This document shows positions 1-8,647 of a stretch of 8,647 bases of DNA, one piece after another (positions within the stretch are counted from its first letter, which is position 1; the number at the start of each line of letters is the position of its first letter). The translations under genes were made by a program, and so were the position numbers. This stretch comes from a virus (taxonomy: Duplodnaviria > Heunggongvirae > Uroviricota > Caudoviricetes): the IMG/VR virus record IMGVR_UViG_2660238215_000009. One strand, given 5' to 3'. The notes below the pieces were generated by a model. The model was not told where the DNA came from, searched no databases, and saw nothing but the letters and a program-made list of their open reading frames with translations.

Positions 1-1152
1 TTGCAGGAAGGCAGTGGACGCACCCAGACTATCCGCATGATTCTGGTTGTCACGAACACCGAAGCCATCACGCTGAAAATCGACCCGTCTGTGGTTCTGG
101 CAACCCGCAAATATGTGGATGATAAAATCTCAGAGCACGAACAGTCACGACGTCACCCGGACGCCTCGCTGACCGTAAAAGGTTTTACTCAGTTAAGCAG
201 TGCAATTAACAGTGAATCAGAAACACTGGCCGCAACACCGAAAGCGGTTAAGGCTGCATATGACCTGGCTAACGGGAAATATACTGCCCAGAACGCCACC
301 ACAACACAAAAAGGGATTGTTCAGCTCAGTAGCGCCACGAACAGCACGTCTGAAACGCTGGCAGCGACACCAAAAGCTGTTAAGGTGGTAATGGATGAAA
401 CGAACAAGAAAGCACCATTAAACAGCCCGGCACTGACCGGAACGCCAACAACACCAACAGCGCCACAGGGGACTAATAATACCCAGATCGCAAGCACAGC
501 TTTCGTTATGGCCGCGATTGCCGCACTTGTAGATTCGTCACCTGATGCACTGAACACGCTGAACGAACTGGCTGCGGCGCTGGGCAATGACCCGAATTTT
601 GCGACCACCATGACTAACGCGCTTGCGGGTAAGCAACCGAAGGATGCCACCCTGACGGCGCTGGCGGAGCTTGCTACATCAGCAGANNNNNNNNNNNNNN
701 NNNNNNNNNNNNNNNNNNNNNNNNNNNNNNNNNNNNNNNNNNNNNNNNNNNNNNNNNNNNNNNNNNNNNNNNNNNNNNNNNNNNNNNNNNNNNNNNNNNN
801 NNNNNNNNNNNNNNNNNNNNNNNNNNNNNNNNNNNNNNNNNNNNNNNNNNNNNNNNNNNNNNNNNNNNNNNNNNNNNNNNNNNNNNNNNNNNNNNNNNNN
901 NNNNNNNNNNNNNGCATACAGGGGTGGTTAACAGGAAGTCATTATCATAATATTCGGTCATGGGACGCGTGGGATAACACGGTACTGGTGCCAAATGACA
1001 AAGGAGGGGATAGTCTGTTGTCGACAGATAACGCCGTCCGGCAAGGTGCAATTAACGGTAGATTTACCAGTCAATACAGAACGGAATCCTCAGTGGGGAA
1101 TGAAACCCGCCCACGCAATATTGCCTTCAATTATATTGTGAGAACCGCATAA
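1..1152 (+). CDS. Tail fibre protein, 5'-partial. Conserved P2 gpH / Mu S / lambda Stf-type N-terminal region, then a masked segment, then a variable tip ending in the shared C-terminal motif
   Basis: Long ORF with tandem ATPKAVK / SSATNSTSETLAATPKAVK-type repeats and ...NTLNELAAALGNDPNFATTMTNALAGKQPKDATLTALA, characteristic of the conserved N-terminal part of myovirus side tail fibres. Ends ...ETRPRNIAFNYIVRTA, the same C-terminal motif as the three minus-strand cassettes. The TTG at position 1 is almost certainly not the real start; the gene begins upstream of the window. Stop TAA at 1150-1152. Confidence 0.85.
   Translation: MQEGSGRTQTIRMILVVTNTEAITLKIDPSVVLATRKYVDDKISEHEQSRRHPDASLTVKGFTQLSSAINSESETLAATPKAVKAAYDLANGKYTAQNATTTQKGIVQLSSATNSTSETLAATPKAVKVVMDETNKKAPLNSPALTGTPTTPTAPQGTNNTQIASTAFVMAAIAALVDSSPDALNTLNELAAALGNDPNFATTMTNALAGKQPKDATLTALAELATSAXXXXXXXXXXXXXXXXXXXXXXXXXXXXXXXXXXXXXXXXXXXXXXXXXXXXXXXXXXXXXXXXXXXXXXXXXXXXXIQGWLTGSHYHNIRSWDAWDNTVLVPNDKGGDSLLSTDNAVRQGAINGRFTSQYRTESSVGNETRPRNIAFNYIVRTA
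687..913. other. Run of 227 N (masked or unresolved sequence) inside the tail-fibre CDS
   Basis: Directly visible. Reading frame is preserved across it (bases 685..915 = 77 codons), and its position and length match the ~220-bp conserved site-plus-collar-domain block seen at the 5' end of each minus-strand cassette. Confidence 0.99.
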
Positions 1153-1763
1153 TGAATAACGCGATATTAAATGATGACCTTATTGCCGTACAGGCAGGAA
1201 ACATCGTCGTTTATAACTATGATGGTGAAACACGGGAATATATTTCCGAATCAACTGAATATCTTGCTGTGGGTGTCGGTATTCCGGCAAATTCCTGTTT
1301 AGATGCCCCGGGCGCACATAAAGCGGGCTATGCTATCCGCCGTTCGGAGAATTTAAGTTCATGGGAGTATGCGCCAGACCATCGTGGTGAAACCGTCTAT
1401 AACACTGACACGGGAAACACCGAAGAAATCACGACGCTGGGTGACTACCCGAAAAATACAACCACTATCGCCCCGTTAACACCATACGATAAATGGGATG
1501 GTGAAAAATGGGTGACAGATACTGAGGCACAACATGGTGCCGCAGTAGAAGCGGCAGAAACCAAGCGCCAGTCACTGGCTGATGCGGCAATGGCTTCCAT
1601 AAGTCTGATTCAGTTGAAGTTGCAGGCCGGGCGGAAGTTGACGCAGGCAGAAACCACCCGGCTTAACGCCGTGCTGGATTATATAGACGCACTGAACGCA
1701 ATGGATATAAACATGGCACCAGATATCAACTGGCCGGAAATACCACTGGCAGCAGCCAGTTGA
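1152..1763 (+). CDS. tfa: Tail fibre assembly chaperone (Tfa; P2 gpG / Mu U / TfaE family)
   Basis: 203-aa ORF with ATG overlapping the fibre stop (TAATG at 1150-1154), implying translational coupling. Motifs typical of Tfa proteins as recalled: ...DHRGETVYNTDTG...KWDGEKWVTDTEA...ETKRQSL...APDINWPEIP. Stop TGA at 1761-1763. Confidence 0.85.
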   Translation: MNNAILNDDLIAVQAGNIVVYNYDGETREYISESTEYLAVGVGIPANSCLDAPGAHKAGYAIRRSENLSSWEYAPDHRGETVYNTDTGNTEEITTLGDYPKNTTTIAPLTPYDKWDGEKWVTDTEAQHGAAVEAAETKRQSLADAAMASISLIQLKLQAGRKLTQAETTRLNAVLDYIDALNAMDINMAPDINWPEIPLAAAS

Positions 1764-1769
1764 ATATAA

Positions 1770-2246
1770 CTAAGCCGCCCTCACGATATAGTTAAATGCA
1801 ATATTGCGGGGGCGGGTTTCACTACCACCTGTGTTACCAATACTTCCTCGTGAATGAAGCGTTGGTGATGGAATCAAACTCCCTCCTGTATTTGTGGCAT
1901 CAAGCCCCCTGCCTTGTGTATATGTTTTTTTGAAAATCGTGGCCAACTCCCATTCATCCTTTGTGTCATATCCATCGTTAGCTACAACAATATGGCGGTG
2001 TTTTTCCAACATCCCGGTTTGAATGCTCAATAAAGCGCGTGCTGCATCAATTCCTCGCCCATCATCCCAGCCACGGATAAATTCACCGCGTAAATCTGGT
2101 AATTTATTGGTGGGGTAGGCCTTTGCCAGTTTGGGATACATTTCAGAAGAAAATGCTGCACCGTTACATTTCAGCCAGCCCGTTGGTGGTGTAGCTGAGG
2201 GCCACGGAACGGGTACACCAACGGGCAACGCAGAGCCTTCCCCCAA
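1770..2246 (-). CDS. Silent alternative tail-fibre tip cassette 1 (tail-collar domain + variable region + shared C-terminal motif); no own promoter or RBS
   Basis: Minus-strand frame encodes (HENVG)LGEGSALPVGVPVPWPSATPPTGWLKCNGAAFSSEMYPKLAKAYPTNKLPDLRGEFIRGWDDGRGIDA (phage tail-collar domain signature PxGWLxCxG...YPxL...LPDLRGxFxRG), then ~85 variable residues, then ...ETRPRNIAFNYIVRAA. The listed start is a TTG inside the crossover site with no Shine-Dalgarno; the frame stays open upstream to 2267. Stop TAG at 1770-1772, 6 nt from the tfa stop. Confidence 0.7.
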   Translation of the reverse strand: MGEGSALPVGVPVPWPSATPPTGWLKCNGAAFSSEMYPKLAKAYPTNKLPDLRGEFIRGWDDGRGIDAARALLSIQTGMLEKHRHIVVANDGYDTKDEWELATIFKKTYTQGRGLDATNTGGSLIPSPTLHSRGSIGNTGGSETRPRNIAFNYIVRAA

Positions 2247-2263
2247 ACCAACGTTTTCATGCG
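2044..2263. repeat. Conserved ~220-bp block, copy 1 of 3 direct repeats (collar-domain coding + crossover site)
   Basis: By-eye alignment with 2558..2777 and 2998..3216 shows long identical stretches (e.g. cccatcatcccagcc, acatttcagaagaaaatg, gcaccgttacatttcagcc, ggaacgggcacaccaacgggca, aaaccaacgttttc). Identity is estimated at roughly 85-90%, not computed. Confidence 0.85.
2238..2263 (-). other. Candidate 26-bp invertase crossover site S1 (TTCCCCCAAACC-AA-CGTTTTCATGCG)
   Basis: Matches the hix/gix/cix-type architecture as recalled (TTCnnnnAAACC - 2-bp core - GGTTTnnnnnAA): strong left half, AA core at 2250-2251, weaker right half. Sits at the cassette 1 / cassette 2 junction and contains the cassette 2 stop codon (TGA, 2257-2259). 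Confidence 0.55.
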
Positions 2264-2760
2264 GCTCTTACGATGTAATTAAATGCAACGTTGCGAGGGC
2301 GAGTTTCTGTACCTACATTTCCACTAATTTCACCAAACCGTTTTACATTACGAGAGCTAATGGCTCGTAGTGAGGAAGGCACCTTTAAACCGGGTTCGTC
2401 TGTTTTAACTATTCCCCCGTCCCCGTATGTAGCCAGTATTCCAGGGTTTACTCCTTCCCGTGCACTTCCCGCGGCAAGTCCATCCCCGGTCCATAATTCC
2501 ATATAGTGTGCATGATCCAAAATTGTGTGTGGCTGCCAATTAAGCAAAGCGCGGCCAGCATCCACCCCGCGCCCATCATCCCAGCCGCGAATAAATTCGC
2601 CCCGTAAATCCGGTAATTTATTGGCGGGGTAGGCCTTTGCCAGATTGGGGTACATTTCAGAAGAAAATGCTGCACCGTTACATTTCAGCCACCCCGCTGG
2701 CGGCGTGGCTGAAGGCCATGGAACGGGCACACCAACGGGCAGTGCAGAGCCTTCCCCCAA
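2257..2760 (-). CDS. Silent alternative tail-fibre tip cassette 2 (tail-collar domain + variable region + shared C-terminal motif)
   Basis: Encodes (HENVG)LGEGSALPVGVPVPWPSATPPAGWLKCNGAAFSSEMYPNLAKAYPANKLPDLRGEFIRGWDDGRGVDA, then a distinct ~100-aa variable region, then ...TETRPRNVAFNYIVRAA. Start position is a TTG within site S2; no RBS. Confidence 0.7.
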   Translation of the reverse strand: MGEGSALPVGVPVPWPSATPPAGWLKCNGAAFSSEMYPNLAKAYPANKLPDLRGEFIRGWDDGRGVDAGRALLNWQPHTILDHAHYMELWTGDGLAAGSAREGVNPGILATYGDGGIVKTDEPGLKVPSSLRAISSRNVKRFGEISGNVGTETRPRNVAFNYIVRAA

Positions 2761-2777
2761 ACCAACGTTTTCATGCT
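2558..2777. repeat. Conserved ~220-bp block, copy 2 of 3
   Basis: See copy 1; same internal order, ending in crossover site S2. Confidence 0.85.
2752..2777 (-). other. Candidate 26-bp invertase crossover site S2 (TTCCCCCAAACC-AA-CGTTTTCATGCT)
   Basis: Differs from S1 only at its last base; core AA at 2764-2765; contains the cassette 3 stop codon (TGA, 2771-2773). Confidence 0.55.
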
Positions 2778-3256
2778 GCCCTTACGATGTAATTAAACGC
2801 AATATTACGAGGACGAATGGTTACATAATTAACCCCATCACCTCGTGAAGGCCCTGCAAATGAAAAACGGGAAAAGCCTGGTTGGTTAGAAACAATTTGG
2901 TCATAGTTATTGATTGAATGACCAGACCCAATGTCGAAATTACCTCCGTAATGAGAAAAACTTGTACCATCCTGCCCAGAAAGCAGGGTACGTCCCGCAT
3001 CAATCCCGCGCCCATCATCCCAGCCACGGATAAATTCACCGCGTAAATCCGGTAATTTATTGGTGGGATAAGCCCTTGCCAGTCTGGGATACATTTCAGA
3101 AGAAAATGTTGCACCGTTACATTTCAGCCAGCCCGTTGGTGGTGTTGCTAAGGGCCACGGAACGGGCACACCAACGGGCAGTGCAGAACCTTCTCCTAAA
3201 CCAACGTTTTCGTTTTTATCCCTACCTATACCAACTATGTATTTTTCACGAAACAA
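2771..3256 (-). CDS. Silent alternative tail-fibre tip cassette 3 (tail-collar domain + Gly/Ser-rich variable region + shared C-terminal motif)
   Basis: Encodes ...NENVGLGEGSALPVGVPVPWPLATPPTGWLKCNGATFSSEMYPRLARAYPTNKLPDLRGEFIRGWDDGRGIDA, a variable region, then ...VTIRPRNIAFNYIVRAA. The listed 5' end (TTG at 3254-3256) has no Shine-Dalgarno; sequence upstream of site S3 is probably not translated. Confidence 0.65.
   Translation of the reverse strand: MFREKYIVGIGRDKNENVGLGEGSALPVGVPVPWPLATPPTGWLKCNGATFSSEMYPRLARAYPTNKLPDLRGEFIRGWDDGRGIDAGRTLLSGQDGTSFSHYGGNFDIGSGHSINNYDQIVSNQPGFSRFSFAGPSRGDGVNYVTIRPRNIAFNYIVRAA
2998..3216. repeat. Conserved ~220-bp block, copy 3 of 3
   Basis: See copy 1; the most diverged copy (e.g. 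ttctcctaaacc vs ttcccccaaacc in the site). Confidence 0.85.
3191..3216 (-). other. Candidate 26-bp invertase crossover site S3 (TTCTCCTAAACC-AA-CGTTTTCGTTTT), closest to the invertase gene
   Basis: Same architecture as S1 and S2, core AA at 3203-3204. Lies 55 bp upstream of the invertase ATG, analogous to gixR/cixR next to gin/cin. Confidence 0.5.
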
Positions 3257-3270
3257 AGAGGATGTTTTTT
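3217..3270 (+). promoter_or_regulatory. Invertase 5' region: Shine-Dalgarno AAAGAGGA (3255-3262) and presumed promoter next to site S3
   Basis: AAAGAGGA sits 8 nt before the ATG at 3271. The AT-rich stretch has -10-like hexamers (tatacc at 3227-3232, tatgta at 3236-3241), but no clear -35 was identified; the promoter is inferred. Confidence 0.35.
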
Positions 3271-3870
3271 ATGCAAATTGGCTATATTCGTGTGTCAACA
3301 AATGACCAGAACACGGATTTACAACGCAATGCACTGAACTGCGCAGGATGTGAACTGATTTTTGAAGATAAAATCAGCGGAACGAAATCAGCCAGACCGG
3401 GATTGAAAAAACTGCTCAGAACGCTATCAGAAGGAGATACGCTGGTTGTCTGGAAGCTGGACAGACTGGGCAGAAGTATGAAACACCTGATCACGCTTAT
3501 TGAGGAATTGCGGGAAAAAGGTGTTAATTTCCGTAGTCTGACGGACAGCATTGACACATCAACACCCATGGGGCGTTTCTTTTTTCACGTCATGGGGGCT
3601 TTAGCCGAAATGGAACGTGAATTAATTGTAGAGCGTACACTGGCCGGGCTGGCAGCAGCACGCGAACAAGGACGCATTGGCGGACGTCGCCCGAAGTTGA
3701 CAAAAGAACAACACGAGCAAATAGCGAGGCTGATTAAAAACGGTCATGACAGGAAACAACTGGCGATCATTTACGACATCGGCATATCGACGATTTATCG
3801 TTATCACCCTGTAGGCGATATACAGGCTGAAGAAACAACCAGGCAGACTCAGGAAAATGAAAACCGCTAA
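3271..3870 (+). CDS. pin: Serine-recombinase DNA invertase (Pin/Gin/Hin/Cin family)
   Basis: 199 aa: MQIGYIRVSTNDQNTDLQRNALNCAGCELIFEDKISG...LVVWKLDRLGRSMKHLITLIEELREKGVNFRSLTDSIDTSTPMGRFFFHVMGALAEMERELIVERT...GRIGGRRPKLT..., near-identical in motifs to enterobacterial Pin/Gin invertases as recalled. Catalytic Ser9 is codon 3295-3297; C-terminal HTH region present. True start is the ATG at 3271 (RBS, family N-terminus), not the longer listed ORF from 3076. Confidence 0.92.
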   Translation: MQIGYIRVSTNDQNTDLQRNALNCAGCELIFEDKISGTKSARPGLKKLLRTLSEGDTLVVWKLDRLGRSMKHLITLIEELREKGVNFRSLTDSIDTSTPMGRFFFHVMGALAEMERELIVERTLAGLAAAREQGRIGGRRPKLTKEQHEQIARLIKNGHDRKQLAIIYDIGISTIYRYHPVGDIQAEETTRQTQENENR

Positions 3871-3889
3871 TCTGACCATTAGCGGTTTT
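3860..3889. terminator. Candidate bidirectional stem-loop between the convergent invertase and gpU-like genes
   Basis: Perfect 11-bp inverted repeat aaaaccgctaa (3860-3870) / ttagcggtttt (3879-3889) with an 8-nt loop. Overlaps the invertase stop codon; T-rich on both flanks. No free-energy calculation was done. Confidence 0.4.
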
Positions 3890-3896
3890 GCGTTAA

Positions 3897-4391
3897 TCAA
3901 AACAACCCTTTAACGGAGCTGGCCGCGCTGTTAAGGGATGATGTGACCTTATCTTTGAAGCCGGACAGCATATCACTGAACGATGAGGATTGCAGGCGCT
4001 CCCGCAAATCCTCATCACAGCGTTCAAGGGTCAGTGAAAATTCTATCTTTTTCGCCTTACCGTAGCGATCAAACTCGGAACGGGTCGTATTCGTTCCGGT
4101 CAGGACATACATGCCGTAAATCTGCCCGACGCCATCAATCAGAGGCCAGGGTCGTCCTGTATACGCCTGCGTGGTCAGCAGCGACAGCGACACTTCGCCA
4201 CCTGTAATTTCAGGATAAAGCACACCAGAAAGAACGATGCGATCATCACCTGCACCGATATACTGCCAGCTTGCTGAACGGTTAACGCGTTCATTTTTCA
4301 CATGCCGCCAGCTTTTGTTTTGCTGTAACTGCTGATGCGGCAGCGTGCGCAGCTCAAAAACAAACATGCCGTAGATCATCATCATGGCCAT
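3897..4391 (-). CDS. U: P2 gpU-like tail protein
   Basis: 164-aa ORF MAMMMIYGMFVFELRTLPHQQLQQNKSWRH...GVLYPEITGG..., resembling the P2 gpU family as recalled (MMM...FVF...Q..SWRH). Directly follows the tape-measure gene. The true start may be the ATG at 4385 (SD GGAG, 8-nt spacer) rather than 4391. Confidence 0.75.
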   Translation of the reverse strand: MAMMMIYGMFVFELRTLPHQQLQQNKSWRHVKNERVNRSASWQYIGAGDDRIVLSGVLYPEITGGEVSLSLLTTQAYTGRPWPLIDGVGQIYGMYVLTGTNTTRSEFDRYGKAKKIEFSLTLERCDEDLRERLQSSSFSDMLSGFKDKVTSSLNSAASSVKGLF

Positions 4392-4397
4392 GACTCC

Positions 4398-7238
4398 TCA
4401 ATCTTTATCGTAAAAACTGCCACGCCCGGCACGGGCGCGCCGTTCCATTTCTGCCCTGACCATTTCACCGACCAGTTTCGCCAGTTCGCGGGGATTCTGC
4501 GTAACAACGTTATGCAGATGAACATGAATTTCACCGCCAAATCCGGAGGCAACAGGCTCCCGGTTACGGGAAGTTACAGGAACTGATGCCACTGGAGATC
4601 GTATGGCCTCCGCCACCGGGCGGGAGCTGGCCGCAACAACAGGGACCAGCGCCGGAGGCAGCGGAGCCGGGACCACGGGTGTGATATTAATTGCGGGGGG
4701 CTTACTGACCTGCGCAATCTTCCGCTCCTGCCACTCCCCACGAACGGCAAGTGCGCGGGGCAGGTTCTTAAAGACAATATCGCCGGGGCCAATGCGTTTT
4801 TTCGTCTCCTCAACCAGCTTACCTGTGTTATCAGCAATTTTGCTGAGTCTGCGCAGCGTACCGGTATTGCTGTCTGTGAGCGGTTTATTGTCTTTGGGGT
4901 TATCACCTCCGGTACCATTGCCATTTTCCACAGGCTTCGGCGGATTGATTTTCGCCAGGTCCCCCTGAAGCAAGGCAACCTTGTCCTGAAGAATGGCCGC
5001 ACGCTGTGCGTCTTCGATTTTCTTGCGCGCCCTTTCCGCTTCATCCGGAAGGACGCCAAGTTTTTCAAGTATCCACGCCAGCGTATCCAGCAGCATTTTT
5101 GCAGGTGTCAGAACAAGCTGTAACGCACCGCCAAGAACGTTACCGAATATCTCGCCAGCACTGGTACATTTATCCAGCGTTTCCTTGCTGGACTCCATCG
5201 GTGACAGCAGCGATTTAAACCAGTTAAACACCTGGCTGATCCCGCTCCCGATTGCGTCAAAAACAGGACCAAACCGTTCAAAGGTTTCGCGCAACGGGGT
5301 CAGCCTTTCCATAATCCCGCTGAACACCCCGGCAAAAAATGCCCTGATGGGATCCCAGTATTTCCAGATAAGAACGGCAGCTCCGGCAAGCGCAGCCACG
5401 ATAAGACCAACCGGACTGAACAACGCCCCGATAGCGCCTCCCAGTAAAGAAACGGAACCCGTCACCATTCCCCATAGTGCTGGCAGAACCCTGACAGCAT
5501 TCATTGATCCGGTCAGGAGGGAAAAACCAAGACGCAGTTTTGCCAGCGGGCCAGCAAGCACACCAATAGCCAGCGACAACGAGCCAACCGTTGCAGTCAT
5601 TGCCAGCAGTGCACCGCCTGCAATCAGTAGCTGGCGCGTCAGTGCGGGATGGGCCTGCGCCAGCGCCGTCACCTTTGATACCACACGCGTGAGCCACTGC
5701 GTGACAGAACGCAGCGGACCGTCAATCAGATCTGCAATGCGGATGCGCAACCCTTCCCATGCACTGCTGAGTGATTTCAAATCGCCGTCAAGGTTGTTGG
5801 CCATAACCTTTGCCGTGCGTTCAGCCTCACCGCGCGCGCCTTCAAGTTCTTTTCTCAGTTTGGGTAAGGAGCCGTCACCTGCCGCATCAACGAGGGCCAT
5901 AAATGATGTGAAAGCCTCTTCTCCGGCAATGTCCTTAAAGAACGATACCCGGTCAACTTCCCCGTATTTGCGGGTAGCTTTATAAAGGTCAGCCAGCACA
6001 TCCTCCATCGGGCGCATTTTGCCCCCGGCATCCGAGACAGACACGCCAAGCTCTTTCAGCGCCTCTGCTGCCGCCTTTGGCGGTGATGCCAGACGAGCCA
6101 GGCTGGCACGCATTGCCGTACCAGCATCACTCCCCCTGATACCCATATTCGCCAGCACGCCCGCCATCGCTGCGGCCTGCTCCAGCGATATTCCCAGCTT
6201 ACCCGCCACCGGACCTGCATATTTCATGGTTTCACCCAGTGCGCGAAGGTCAGTGTTGGTACGGGTAAACGCTGCGGTGAGTGTGTCGCCGACCCGGTCC
6301 ATCTGGTCAGCAGAAAGACCGAACTGCGTCAGAATATTTGAGCCAATATCCGCCGTCTCACCGAGGTCCATACCGCCAGCCGTTGCCATGCTCAGTACGC
6401 CAGGGAGCGCAGCCTGAATGGCCTGTGGTGTGAAGCCAGCCATTGCAAGAAATGCCTGCCCACTGGCGGCATCGCCTGCGGTGAACTGCGTTTCAGAGCC
6501 AAGTTTTAACGCCTGCTCACGCAGCGCCTTAAACTGCGGGCTGTTTTTGTCGATTCGCGTCAGTGCCTGAACGCGGGACATCTCTTTCCCGAACCCGATC
6601 GCAGGCTGCAAAAAACGCCCGGCAGCATAGCCGCCCGCCGCTGCCGCACCAATTGCCAGCGCACCACCTGTTTTCAGTTTTCCCGCTGTTTCCTGCGCGC
6701 GCGAATACCGCTCACGCGCCTGCGTTACACGCGCAAGCGCCTGCCGTTCGCGTTCAAGCTGGTTGTTGTACTGTTCGGTGCGTCTGATGGCCTGCTGGAT
6801 GGTGTTATCGCTGCCTGTCAGGGAAATGCCGTGGCGTTTCAGCTCTCCGCCAATCTCCCGCATTTTCTGAATTTCCCGTGTGCGCGATTCATTCAGGCGT
6901 TCAAGCCGGGTGCTTAACTGCTGCATCAGCTTTTGTTGTTTTTCGCTGAGCACTGTACCCGTGCGTTGTAACTGATTAAGGGCGTTAAGCTGGCGTCGTG
7001 CTTTCACGATACCCGCATCCGCTTTACTGACAGCGTCGCGGGCGCGCTCAAATGAACGCGCCTGACGCTCGAGATTTTTGATCGCCCCCTGCGTTCGCTG
7101 GATGGAGTCACCAAACTGCCCCATCAGGCGGCGGGCGTTTTCGGCAGGCCGGGTCAGCCTGTCAACGGCGCTGAAAGCGACCCGGATATCAAGAGTCTTC
7201 ATTGTCTGCATTCCCGCTGCGAAGTGCCGCCCGCTCAC
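4398..7238 (-). CDS. T: Tail tape measure protein (P2 gpT-like)
   Basis: 946-aa ORF, Ala/Gly/Leu-rich with long hydrophobic helical stretches and coiled-coil-like Q/R/E-rich N-terminal region; located downstream of the E/E' frameshift pair as in all long-tailed phages. Start uncertain: GTG at 7238, or ATG at 7211 or 7202; overlaps the end of E'. Confidence 0.85.
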   Translation of the reverse strand: MSGRHFAAGMQTMKTLDIRVAFSAVDRLTRPAENARRLMGQFGDSIQRTQGAIKNLERQARSFERARDAVSKADAGIVKARRQLNALNQLQRTGTVLSEKQQKLMQQLSTRLERLNESRTREIQKMREIGGELKRHGISLTGSDNTIQQAIRRTEQYNNQLERERQALARVTQARERYSRAQETAGKLKTGGALAIGAAAAGGYAAGRFLQPAIGFGKEMSRVQALTRIDKNSPQFKALREQALKLGSETQFTAGDAASGQAFLAMAGFTPQAIQAALPGVLSMATAGGMDLGETADIGSNILTQFGLSADQMDRVGDTLTAAFTRTNTDLRALGETMKYAGPVAGKLGISLEQAAAMAGVLANMGIRGSDAGTAMRASLARLASPPKAAAEALKELGVSVSDAGGKMRPMEDVLADLYKATRKYGEVDRVSFFKDIAGEEAFTSFMALVDAAGDGSLPKLRKELEGARGEAERTAKVMANNLDGDLKSLSSAWEGLRIRIADLIDGPLRSVTQWLTRVVSKVTALAQAHPALTRQLLIAGGALLAMTATVGSLSLAIGVLAGPLAKLRLGFSLLTGSMNAVRVLPALWGMVTGSVSLLGGAIGALFSPVGLIVAALAGAAVLIWKYWDPIRAFFAGVFSGIMERLTPLRETFERFGPVFDAIGSGISQVFNWFKSLLSPMESSKETLDKCTSAGEIFGNVLGGALQLVLTPAKMLLDTLAWILEKLGVLPDEAERARKKIEDAQRAAILQDKVALLQGDLAKINPPKPVENGNGTGGDNPKDNKPLTDSNTGTLRRLSKIADNTGKLVEETKKRIGPGDIVFKNLPRALAVRGEWQERKIAQVSKPPAINITPVVPAPLPPALVPVVAASSRPVAEAIRSPVASVPVTSRNREPVASGFGGEIHVHLHNVVTQNPRELAKLVGEMVRAEMERRARAGRGSFYDKD

Positions 7239-7425
7239 GCCAGCTAACCACTTCGCCGGGCGTCATCATGAAGATTTCGGCGGGCGACCAGTTAAAAATA
7301 ACGGCAATATCTGCCACAAAGTCTTCTATGTGCTCAAAGCACACAACCGTGATCAGGCTTCCGTCGCCTGTTCGTTCTTCCCGCCAGAGTCCGCACCGCT
7401 CAAAAAATTTACGGCAACCACACAT
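7189..7425 (-). CDS. E': E' extension frame of the tail assembly chaperone; expressed only as an E+E' fusion by -1 frameshifting
   Basis: ORF in the -1 frame relative to E, overlapping its 3' end and the tape-measure start. After the slip the sequence reads ...NFL-ERCGLWREERTGDGSLITVV..., which matches this ORF. Stop at 7189-7191. Confidence 0.7.
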   Translation of the reverse strand: MCGCRKFFERCGLWREERTGDGSLITVVCFEHIEDFVADIAVIFNWSPAEIFMMTPGEVVSWRERAALRSGNADNEDS

Positions 7426-7718
7426 AACTGAATAAAGTCACGGGATGCCATTTTTTTGATCGTCACTTCATCCAGTCGCGGTGATGTCACGCGTGACAGC
7501 AGCGTAAACATGGATTCCGCTTTCAGATTCAGCACATCAGACAGCGACAAATCTCGCAGAGATCCAGCCTGCTCAATAGCCCCGGTGATCTCCACATACG
7601 TGATTTTTTCGCCGCCTCGCTCAATTGGTTGGGTAAGTTTTACGCCACGCTCACTGGTTTCTTTCACAGTGTCAGCAACTACCGTGTTTTCGGTATCGAT
7701 GTTTTTCGTCTCTTTCAT
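7353..7718 (-). CDS. E: Tail assembly chaperone (P2 gpE-like)
   Basis: 121-aa acidic ORF immediately upstream of the tape-measure gene with a strong RBS (AAGGAG, 7-nt spacer) before the ATG at 7716-7718; contains the slippery site near its 3' end. Confidence 0.8.
   Translation of the reverse strand: MKETKNIDTENTVVADTVKETSERGVKLTQPIERGGEKITYVEITGAIEQAGSLRDLSLSDVLNLKAESMFTLLSRVTSPRLDEVTIKKMASRDFIQLCVVAVNFLSGADSGGKNEQATEA
7401..7407 (-). other. Programmed -1 ribosomal frameshift slippery heptamer T_TTT_TTG (minus strand)
   Basis: Minus-strand sequence AAT TTT TTG AGC (N-F-L-S in the E frame). An X_XXY_YYZ heptamer at the point where the E and E' frames overlap, the same type of site described for the P2 E/E+E' pair. 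Confidence 0.75.
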
Positions 7719-7772
7719 CAGGAAACTCCTTTCAGTCAGAGGCGACGCACTGCGCCGCCTGCATATTACTTA

Positions 7773-8285
7773 TCAGCCAAGCCCAAGCGCGGAACGGATG
7801 CGATCGGGCACAATGTCCTTGCCGTCCTTCCGGTAAATGAAGTTCAGCAGGTCAATCTCCCACAGCGGGCGATCGTTAACGCTCAGCTTGTAGTAGGTGT
7901 TTTTAATGGCGTAAGAGTGTGATGTGGCTTCGCCCTGTTTGGCTTCCCCCATATCAATTTCCGTCACACGTCCGCGCATTTCGACTTCATACAGGTCGCT
8001 TTCTGCATCGGTGTAGTATTCACCCGCAAAACGCAGCAGCGTGCCGTCAATCGTGCCGCCATACTTAAGGAACAGCTCACGAACTGCGCCCCCCATGACA
8101 AAGCTCGCATCAAGCGCGGAGTCGTCCAGACCGAGATCAATACTTACCGCACCCATCATGCCACCACCCCAGTAGCTGTCGGTTTTGCGCGTCAGCTTAG
8201 GCAGAGTGACGGACGTCACCTTACCCACTTCGTTTTCACCATCCACAAACAGCGTAAAAAAGCGAAGATGTTTTGGCACAGCCAT
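7773..8285 (-). CDS. FII: Major tail tube protein (P2 gpFII-like)
   Basis: 170-aa ORF MAVPKHLRFFTLFVDGENEVGKVTSVTLPKLTRKTDSYWGGGMMGAV..., resembling contractile-tail tube proteins. ATG at 8283-8285 overlaps the sheath stop (TGATG). Confidence 0.85.
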   Translation of the reverse strand: MAVPKHLRFFTLFVDGENEVGKVTSVTLPKLTRKTDSYWGGGMMGAVSIDLGLDDSALDASFVMGGAVRELFLKYGGTIDGTLLRFAGEYYTDAESDLYEVEMRGRVTEIDMGEAKQGEATSHSYAIKNTYYKLSVNDRPLWEIDLLNFIYRKDGKDIVPDRIRSALGLG

Positions 8286-8647
8286 CAGGCACCTCCCAGC
8301 ACCGCAAATGCGGGTTCAAAGTATTCATCAGTAAACGTCTGGTAAAGCTCCATATCTTCCAGCGGGGGAACAGGCGTATATTTGTAGCGAATACGCACAC
8401 GCCCCTGACGTAAATCCGTGGTGCTGTTATCCACCACGTCATACCAGCACTCCGCGCCAATCAGTTTCCCGGCAGTAACCAGTGAATCCAGTTTTGCCCT
8501 GATGGCACTGATAACATCCTTCACGTTCGCAGGCGTCAGTGGACTGTCGATGGTTTCAAACTGCGCTTCCGCAATTGAATCAGCCAACACCTGTGCGGTT
8601 CGGGTATACACCTCAAAGATGTAGGCGTTCGTTTCCGGTGTGCGGTT
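8285..8647 (-). CDS. FI: Tail sheath protein (P2 gpFI-like), C-terminal part; 5' end lies beyond the window
   Basis: Frame is open from the window edge (8647) to TGA at 8285-8287; C-terminal sequence ...RVRIRYKYTPVPPLEDMELYQTFTDEYFEPAFAVLGGA. Position immediately upstream of the tube gene fits sheath-tube order. Confidence 0.75.
   Translation of the reverse strand, partial: NRTPETNAYIFEVYTRTAQVLADSIAEAQFETIDSPLTPANVKDVISAIRAKLDSLVTAGKLIGAECWYDVVDNSTTDLRQGRVRIRYKYTPVPPLEDMELYQTFTDEYFEPAFAVLGGA

Follow-up and report, generated by a model that had tools for sequence, protein, structure and literature searches.

A tail-fibre locus of an Escherichia coli P2/P88-like prophage with the organization of a Min-type multiple-inversion module

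Background

Plasmid p15B is known for Min, a multiple-inversion system reportedly described by Sandmeier et al. in 1990-1992. Six sites and 240 isomers have been published for Min, in which a constant 5' gene part joins alternative 3' parts by means of more than two sites and overlapping invertible segments. It resides in a P1-type plasmid prophage whose shaft is of the S type. [quoted passage not shown] A two-site version with a Collar domain, consisting of a lone invertible segment of 2067 bp supported by PacBio reads, was reported for prophage Phi2 of strain EC958 by Forde et al. in 2014 (PMC4134206).

Two other kinds of switch are relevant for comparison. The Mu G, P1 C and e14 P segments, inverted by Gin, Cin and Pin, respectively, have two sites, two states and an own assembly gene for each tip. 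The R64 shufflon (Rci, pilV) builds one gene by multiple inversion from a constant 5' part and a set of alternative 3' parts, and depends on the tyrosine recombinase Rci and on sfx sites for the variation of a pilus adhesin.

The locus analyzed here lies in a stretch of 8,647 nucleotides, hereafter the window, from a virus of the Caudoviricetes (IMG/VR record IMGVR_UViG_2660238215_000009). It is very probably a genuine DNA-inversion switch of an E. coli P2/P88-like prophage, in which four or five receptor-binding tips of the tail fibre alternate, and there is little doubt in our view that the whole locus is to be read as a Min-type multiple-inversion module.

Results

Components of the locus

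The features of the locus are collected in Table 1. Base 1 of the window corresponds to about nt 340 of gene H, whose shaft part shared 98-100% identity with gene H of E. coli prophages L001-L012. Beyond the N-run, the sequence preceding tfa belongs to another cassette, b, of which it is the 3' part; b is separate from the three silent ones. The stop codon of b overlaps the start codon of tfa (TAATG), and b was located directly 5' of tfa in every locus examined. Likewise, cassette c was consistently found across tfa from b, and never on the same side, in the loci compared. The sole tail-fibre assembly gene, tfa, thus sits inside the unit [b> tfa> <c], which is the innermost and indivisible invertible unit of the array.

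Table 1. Features of the tail-fibre locus in the window. Coordinates of cassettes c, d and a comprise the coding sequence plus stop codon; half-sites are given in coding orientation.
Feature	Position	Strand	Remarks
Tail-fibre gene H, constant shaft, partial	1..686	+	Pfam Phage_fiber_2 (E 3e-42), Phage_tail_fib
Unresolved N-run, 227 N	687..913		Length not faithful
Tip cassette b, 3' part	914..1152	+	100% identical to cassette b of N31 and TUM1887
tfa, tail-fibre assembly (chaperone) gene	1152..1763	+	Pfam Caudo_TAP (E 6e-33), PHROG 105
Silent tip cassette c, 159 aa from site	1770..2249	-	Pfam Collar (E 4e-15); convergent with tfa
Crossover site of c	2238..2263	-	CGCATGAAAACG TT GGTTTGGGGGAA; core 2250..2251
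Silent tip cassette d, 168 aa from site	2257..2763	-	Pfam Collar (E 4e-14)
Crossover site of d	2752..2777	-	AGCATGAAAACG TT GGTTTGGGGGAA; core 2764..2765
Silent tip cassette a, 143 aa from site, outermost	2771..3202	-	Pfam Collar (E 4e-15)
Outermost crossover site (cassette a)	3191..3216	-	AAAACGAAAACG TT GGTTTAGGAGAA; core 3203..3204
Serine DNA invertase, Gin/Pin/Cin/Hin/Min ('Din') family, 199 aa	3271..3870	+	Pfam, PHROG, Gin alignment
Presumed recombinational enhancer	3292..3355	+	Two Fis-site-like blocks early in the invertase gene
Hairpin, 12-bp stem	3860..3889		Between convergent invertase and gpU genes

Cassettes c, d and a share a 5' block of 271 nt (80-88% identity) and a 3' block of 53 nt, between which their middles differ, and each of them matched the C-terminal ~160 aa of PHROG 523 ('tail collar fiber protein'). 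PDB matches of cassette c were to the T4 gp37 tip and to a short tail fibre. Two E. coli prophages, N31 and TUM1887, hold copies of these modules: cassette d was 100% identical in both but lay on different strands (plus in N31, minus in TUM1887), and cassette a, silent in the window, was fused to H in both (99.8-100% identity). A scan of the whole window yielded no Rfam match.

The invertase displayed the layout of small serine recombinases, namely an N-terminal catalytic domain with the active-site serine and a C-terminal HTH. Profile searches identified Pfam Resolvase (E 2e-51) and HTH_7 (E 1e-12), the alignment with residues 1-185 of Mu Gin was without gaps (E about 1e-91; PDB 4m6f/3uj3), and the catalytic Ser9 was present within RVSTNDQ. 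Inside the gene, the blocks GTGTCAACAAATGAC and GCGCAGGATGTGAAC (nt 22-36 and 71-85 of the gene, ~49 bp from centre to centre) showed synonymous-site conservation in excess. Among 37 distinct invertase genes, conservation at third codon positions was 0.87 and 0.78 in the two blocks, and 0.68 over codons 1-35 versus 0.54 in the remaining gene. The two blocks may correspond to the Hin/Gin enhancer, and on the strength of this conservation the segment is presumed to be a Fis-dependent enhancer acting in cis. The hairpin downstream is probably a bidirectional terminator that seals the module off.

Three 26-bp hix-like sites were found in the window, all on the minus strand and each starting one of the cassettes c, d and a. 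In coding orientation they consist of 12 nt followed by TT GGTTT(G/A)GG(G/A)GAA, and the 21-nt core pattern was found 3 times in the window against 0 in 200 shuffles. Their right halves, read as TTC(C/T)CC(C/T)AAACC, agree with the Din-family consensus and their TT cores are identical. The same site consensus was tabulated by Forde et al., the EC958 sites being ...ATTACCTT GGTTTAGGAGAA and ...AAACGTT GGTTTGGGGGAA (PMC4134206). The stop codon of a lies in the left half of the d site. At the outermost site, the left half AA(A/G)AC(G/A)AAAACG was fixed in place in all relatives, with a variable tip behind it.

Most of the parts list of the first-pass annotation was confirmed by these data. It had recognized a Pin/Gin-family serine invertase and, on the strand opposite to the fibre gene, three tandem Collar cassettes of the same orientation, each opening with a candidate 26-bp crossover site and carrying a different variable tip. 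It had also proposed profile searches of both components, and these matched Pfam Collar in all three cassettes and the two expected domains in the invertase, Ser9 being unmutated. Its description of the cassettes as promoterless is consistent with the single, weak promoter-like match found in 900..4000, versus a mean of 4.7 in shuffles.

Mapping of the exchange point

A further site, TTCTTGATTACC TT GGTTT(G/A)GG(G/A)GAA, was found in gene H at the junction of shaft and tip in 12/12 related loci, including 100%-identical ones. It has the same TT core, in an orientation opposite to that of the minus-strand cassettes. The right-half variant of tip a, GGTTTAGGAGAA, stood behind the H left half in N31 and TUM1887 and behind the outermost left half in the window. 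The exchange therefore falls within 'TT GGTTT', and the crossover maps to 7 nt at most around the TT core. In strain SCU-101, a chimera was formed at a short quasi-site that has a TT core and lacks flanking homology.

Content of the N-run

The length of the N-run in the window could not be taken at face value. In complete E. coli genomes, its flanks were either 332 nt apart (H::b) or separated by at least 771-810 nt (extra tip), and a spacing of 227 nt was found in none of these genomes, the minimum being 332. The N-run was consequently rejected as a true length, and for this reason the continuous ORF 1..1152, in frame across the Ns, was discounted as evidence for one gene. Judging from relatives, the N-run should contain the end of the shaft (~95 nt), the crossover site of H and the 5' portion of b with its collar; at least 332 nt, the H partner site included, would be hidden there. 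It may also hide a whole extra fused tip, g, of 154 aa, which was the sole module of the 100%-identical TUM1887 prophage missing from the readable window. In the window, b may be fused to H or silent, its junction being masked by the N-run.

Three sites are visible and two others, those of b and H, are predicted from relatives. Since the N-run would hide the H site and possibly a fifth tip, a total of 4-5 sites and 12-48 isomers can be expected. Because the H site is masked, it is from relatives that we infer that the window copy would be active in switching.

Natural isomers

All modules of the window were 100% identical in E. coli TUM1887 and 99.8-100% identical in N31, in permuted order and orientation. 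The inversion distances were 3 between the window and TUM1887, 2 between the window and N31, and 1 between N31 and TUM1887. With chimeric queries, the orientation of the inner unit relative to the invertase was direct in 51 complete E. coli genomes and inverted in 37, and both orientation classes included a 100%-identical match. Depending on the relative, H was fused to a, b, c, e or f.

Two assemblies of E2348/69 were found one inversion apart, the order being H::a, c(+), tfa(-), b(-) in NC_011601.1 and H::b, tfa(+), c(-), a(-) in CP059840.2, and the inversion endpoints of Goldberg et al. coincided exactly with the sites seen here. Isomer arithmetic on the same architecture gave 4 isomers for 3 sites, 12 for 4, 48 for 5 and 240 for 6; the computed values of 4 and 240 equal the numbers published for E2348/69 and p15B Min.

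Discussion

Proposed mechanism and alternative explanations

An intact invertase, the presence of sites, the existence of natural isomers and a crossover at the core are established at this locus. In the mechanism that we propose, the invertase would bind the 26-bp sites, each made of two 12-bp half-sites flanking the TT core, one site being placed in H where shaft and tip meet and one at the 5' end of each cassette. A plus-strand site would pair with a minus-strand site, probably with the help of Fis on the enhancer in the invertase gene, and cutting at the core followed by strand rotation would invert everything between the paired sites. Every inversion would set another Collar tip in frame behind H (...D-Y-L/G-L-G-E-G-S-A-L-P), so that the receptor-binding end of the fibre changes. 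Single cassettes would shift across the fixed inner unit, which would itself flip too. The outcome would be 12 or 48 isomers (4 or 5 sites) and four or five alternative fibres, whose tips would differ in receptor specificity.

Din-family invertases are able to cross-complement, and the inversion could be catalyzed in trans by the invertase of another prophage (Mu-like, e14-like or P1-like) instead of the adjacent gene. E. coli genomes often have several such systems (matching places per genome: median 2, maximum 23), and Forde et al. inferred an action in trans on a prophage with a truncated invertase (PMC4134206). However, the adjacent gene is undamaged (Ser9 and HTH domain present) and was 98-100% conserved beside the array in every locus, P1-like plasmids included; moreover, an activity in trans would supplement the enzyme acting in cis, not substitute for it. 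This explanation is therefore improbable.

It is very unlikely that the window copy is frozen, the gap concealing a broken or absent H site and the cassettes being silent relics. Although the H site is masked and the run of 227 N fits no known configuration, a gap is the expected assembly failure at such a tip array, many draft contigs stopping just upstream of the invertase. Cassette number differs between lineages, so deletions do occur, but neither the invertase nor any visible site is damaged, and all are 100% identical to their counterparts in prophages found in other isomeric states, the window itself being a distinct isomer of those prophages. Even without an H site, b(+) could invert with respect to c, d and a(-).

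Rearrangement by RecA-dependent homologous recombination across the ~250-bp inverted collar repeats (80-95% identical), without involvement of the invertase, has a negligible chance of being correct and was rejected by crossover mapping: the repeats have sufficient length and similarity, but the exchange is confined to the few nucleotides around the TT core and not spread along the repeat, left half-sites were unmoved in 12 loci, the SCU-101 chimera arose at its quasi-site without flanking homology, and the 37:51 orientations and the variants coexisting in one colony suit fast site-specific switching.

Comparison with known systems

Sequence likeness to the min region of p15B was judged indirectly, through IncY P1-like plasmids, IncY being the replicon type of p15B, and through pJIE250-3, a P1-like plasmid with an invertase 98.5% identical to Min. 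The IncY plasmids carry the same array as the window, with a serine invertase of 98% protein identity and with Collar cassettes, b-tfa-c core and site sequence at 88-91% nt identity. The window differs from p15B by its location in a chromosomal P2/P88-like prophage, by its gpH-type shaft and by its number of sites (4-5, versus 6 for p15B and 10 for p886Rt). A close chromosomal counterpart, E2348/69, has the same prophage family, locus and sites, and its modules a, b, c, tfa and invertase showed 96-99.6% nt identity to those of the window. In contrast, E2348/69 is limited to 3 sites and 3 tips (4 variants), to which the window adds cassette d and possibly g. EC958 Phi2 has a Phage_fibre_2 shaft and an invertible 3' end with a Collar domain as well, but with two sites.

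The Mu G, P1 C and e14 P segments resemble the locus in invertase family, 26-bp site design and the logic of fusing fibre 5' and 3' parts. A segment of this two-state kind normally occupies the position of the array in the P88-like backbone. A Mu G/P1 C two-state switch was ruled out for the window, in which all tips share one tfa, with 4-5 sites and many states. An R64-type shufflon was also ruled out: the recombinase is a serine invertase, and the locus has hix-like sites and acts on a phage fibre. The term 'shufflon' fits it in a loose sense only.

These comparisons support two proposals made at first pass, that of an invertase-driven multi-site switch of tail-fibre tips, in line with the permuted identical modules, the crossover at the predicted core and the E2348/69 experiments, and that of a greater proximity to p15B Min than to a two-state G segment, given the several sites and the single tfa. 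The Collar-domain tips had also been thought to set the locus apart from Min, which does not seem to hold, as the IncY P1-like plasmids have the same cassettes. Of the proposed count of three silent cassettes plus one, with up to four tips, the three cassettes stood, and the number of tips and sites was revised to four or five, depending on the content hidden in the N-run.

Orientation of tfa

The location of tfa in the flipping unit raises a further question. About half of the isomers place it antisense to the fibre operon, and those with tip c fused to H always do. On the invertase side, no sigma-70-like site was found from which tfa or the silent cassettes could be transcribed; with tfa antisense, some isomers may therefore lack a working fibre. 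Among sequenced phages, no relative of tip c in a fixed context with tfa behind it was found closer than 76%. More distant Collar tips of P2-like phages do have a downstream tfa, which suggests no more than a general use of this chaperone family by Collar tips.

It is doubtful, but conceivable, that tfa in the flipping unit constitutes a second, hidden switch and that, separately, inversion at quasi-sites within tips, as in SCU-101, regularly makes new double-collar tips. With tfa antisense in half of the isomers, either some Collar tips would fold without it, or the array would toggle fibre-competent and fibre-less particles besides receptors. The orientation of tfa is a small testable question.

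Conclusion

With Min of plasmid p15B already on record and switching demonstrated by experiment in E. coli E2348/69, the system is an ordinary one. It offers biology little that is new: the exchange of tips in this manner goes back to p15B Min (1990) and was rediscovered in E2348/69 and EC958. Such arrays break short-read assemblies, the N-run of the window being an example, and in automatic annotation each silent cassette is entered as a gene of its own for a 'phage tail protein'. The natural Collar tips, about eight in number and sharing one scaffold, represent a ready library for retargeting phages or tailocins.

Organization of the tail region

The window comes from a P2-like E. coli prophage, of which it covers the tail region. 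A three-cassette tail-fibre tip switch driven by an invertase had been proposed there by the first-pass annotation, and profile searches recovered its main parts: a serine invertase with Resolvase and HTH_7 domains beside three minus-strand tip cassettes of the same orientation. These cassettes (c, d and a) lay head-to-tail, each with a Pfam Collar domain (E ~1e-14 to 1e-15) and each aligning to the C-terminal ~160 residues of PHROG 523 ('tail collar fiber protein'); blocks of 271 nt on the 5' side and 53 nt on the 3' side were common to all three, and the middles differed. The invertase aligned without gaps to Mu Gin and its Ser9 was intact, which speaks against inactivation at this residue.

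Features of the window
Feature	Position	Strand	Domain or remark
Shaft of fibre gene H	1..686	+	Pfam Phage_fiber_2
N-run, 227 N	687..913
3' end of Collar-type tip (cassette b)	914..1152	+
tfa, tail-fibre assembly gene	1152..1763	+	Pfam Caudo_TAP
Cassette c	1770..2249	-	Pfam Collar; PHROG 523
Cassette d	2257..2763	-	Pfam Collar; PHROG 523
Cassette a	2771..3202	-	Pfam Collar; PHROG 523
Serine invertase, 199 aa	3271..3870	+	Resolvase + HTH_7
Hairpin between invertase and gpU	3860..3889
gpU, tape-measure gene, E/E', FII, FI	3897..8647	-

The gpU-to-FI block was on the strand opposite to V-W-J-I-H, an arrangement that is the layout of P88-like phages (Xuanwuvirus) and not that of P2. These phages have the same backbone and carry a two-state segment at the place of the array. 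A P2-type E/E' slippery sequence, TTTTTTG, was found at 7407..7401 on the minus strand. The frame of the outermost cassette stayed open upstream of the site as far as a TTG at 3256 (3203..3256); the corresponding RefSeq entry is a 486-nt 'phage tail protein'. Labels of silent cassettes varied among relatives between genes and pseudogenes, and all of these are probably annotation artefacts.

Crossover sites and natural isomers

A 26-bp crossover site, already suspected from the sequence, was present at the start of each cassette, reading [12 nt] TT GGTTT(G/A)GG(G/A)GAA in coding orientation; its 21-nt core pattern had three matches in the window and none in 200 shuffles. On the other strand the right half, TTC(C/T)CC(C/T)AAACC, agreed with the Gin/Cin/Pin/Min consensus tabulated by Forde et al. 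2014 (PMC4134206). At each inner site the left half coincided with the 3' end of the adjacent cassette, stop codon included (..GCA TGA AAACG). At the shaft/tip junction of H, which in the window falls within the N-run, TTCTTGATTACC TT GGTTT... was found in all 12 related E. coli loci, with an identical TT core and an orientation opposite to that of the minus-strand cassettes.

Two chimeric queries, with the inner unit (914..2232) attached either directly or inverted to the region of the invertase, were run against 5,426 complete E. coli genomes. Of these genomes, 51 had the direct form and 37 the inverted one, with 100%-identical matches in N31 and TUM1887, respectively. The window modules (shaft, b, tfa, c, d, a and invertase) were 100% identical to those of TUM1887 and 99.8-100% to those of N31, and were permuted: ...b+ tfa+ c- d- a- in the window, H::a (H fused to tip a) d+ b+ tfa+ c- g- in N31, and H::a g+ c+ tfa- b- d- in TUM1887. 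A breadth-first search over allowed inversions separated the window from N31 by two steps, the window from TUM1887 by three, and N31 from TUM1887 by one. For strain E2348/69, two assemblies were separated by one inversion, which had the H site and the outermost site as its endpoints.

Tip a carried a right-half variant, GGTTTAGGAGAA, which moved together with the tip: in both N31 and TUM1887 it came after the left half of the H site, and in the window after that of the outermost site. This places the point of exchange inside 'TT GGTTT' and excludes general homologous recombination over the length of the 250-bp collar repeat. Together with the permuted modules, this supports the postulated tip switching by inversion.

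The gpU and tape-measure segment (3901..7238) shared only 98.8% identity with TUM1887 and N31 (36 mismatches, one gap), as against 99.8-100% for the switch modules, and the prophage is thus a mosaic. In E. coli SCU-101 (NZ_CP048920.1, L004:2282-3860), the H gene contained a chimeric 284-aa tip in which the initial 393 nt of cassette c were joined to the whole of cassette b, with a 94-nt 3' remnant of cassette c left inverted beyond tfa. The chimera is consistent with inversion at a quasi-site within tip c, CATCACCAACGC TT.

Content of the N-run

In complete E. coli genomes, the flanks of the N-run were 332 nt apart where H was fused directly to b, and 771-810 nt or more apart where another tip lay between; the 227-nt spacing was seen in none of them. 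The length of the run is therefore unreliable, and the apparent ORF 1..1152 across it is an artefact whose open frame is uninformative. Two contents are about equally likely: H::b (four tips, four sites, 12 isomers), towards which the shortness of the run leans, or H::g with a silent b (five tips, 48 isomers), suggested by the 100%-identical TUM1887 prophage, of whose modules g alone does not appear in the window. The earlier count of up to four tips is exact for H::b and becomes five for H::g. Contig ends lay within ~100-1100 nt upstream of the invertase homologue in many drafts from other Enterobacterales (loci L016, L021-L023, L026-L028, L036, L037, L040, L042, L045, L046 and L050). Assemblies are evidently prone to break at such invertible, repeated regions, so the gap here is an expected assembly failure.

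Isomer number and orientation of tfa

Since sites occur solely at tip 5' ends, b, tfa and c cannot be parted by inversion and make up a single inner unit, [b> tfa> <c], which was present in every locus examined; this and the unreliable length of the N-run amend the initial parts list, and the proposed mechanism is supported. Single cassettes were in plus orientation to the left of the unit and in minus orientation to its right, and inversions shift them across the unit while flipping it. The isomer number is 2(n+1)! for n single cassettes; breadth-first search over inversions gave 4 isomers for three sites, 48 for five and 240 for six.

The only copy of tfa lies inside this innermost invertible unit and is flipped by every inversion. 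Relative to the H operon it was antisense in 37 of 88 genomes and in half of the isomers predicted by the inversion search, and it was always convergent with H when tip c was fused to H. No promoter driving antisense tfa from the invertase side was found in the window. In fixed-fibre P2-like phages, a tfa of the same family follows Collar tips, and a C-terminal motif, ETRPRNIAFNYIVRAA, was common to all tips; the chaperone is therefore probably shared by all of them.

Candidate enhancer in the invertase gene

Synonymous sites were compared among 37 distinct invertase genes (identity at least 70%). Conservation at third codon positions was 0.68 in codons 1-35 versus 0.54 elsewhere, with peaks at GTGTCAACAAATGAC (nt 22-36; 0.87) and GCGCAGGATGTGAAC (nt 71-85; 0.78), ~49 bp apart from centre to centre. 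Their positions would correspond to those of the two Fis sites in Hin/Gin enhancers, and the pattern is suggestive of a Fis-site enhancer.

Relation to known systems

A system of this type is already known. In the E2348/69 locus, 96-99.6% identical to the window modules, two overlapping inversions (NC_011601.1 1891695-1893703 and 1892127-1893703) and four coexisting variants confirmed by PCR were reported under the name shufflon by Goldberg et al. 2014 (PMC4272514). The inversion endpoints are exactly the three sites of this locus (L011), and the four variants equal the number computed for three sites. The R64 shufflon is an analogy only, because it uses a tyrosine recombinase. A two-site version, sharing shaft, Collar composition and site sequence with the window, was described in EC958 Phi2 (Forde et al. 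2014, PMC4134206).

IncY and other P1-like plasmids carried the same array (88-91% nucleotide identity) with a shared b-tfa-c core, an invertase 98% identical to that of the window, and up to ten tips (one fused and nine silent cassettes). The largest array seen, with ten sites, was that of the IncY P1-like plasmid p886Rt_IncY (NZ_CP080083.1, L015:1051-7861): it had a fused tip and, flanking the same b-tfa-c core, three Collar cassettes on the plus strand and five on the minus strand. A very short contig assigned to Moraxella osloensis (CAXORL010000041.1, L017, 1268 nt) bore an invertase ~86% identical and an enterobacterial-type Collar cassette; its assignment may reflect contamination.

The invertase of the P1-like plasmid pJIE250-3 has been reported to be 98.5% identical to Min of p15B, and the published isomer number of p15B Min, 240, is the value computed for six sites. 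The suggested closeness to Min rather than to a simple G-segment is borne out. Given the match to the arrays of E2348/69, EC958 Phi2 and P1-like plasmids, the window holds a Min-type module on a P2/P88-like backbone.
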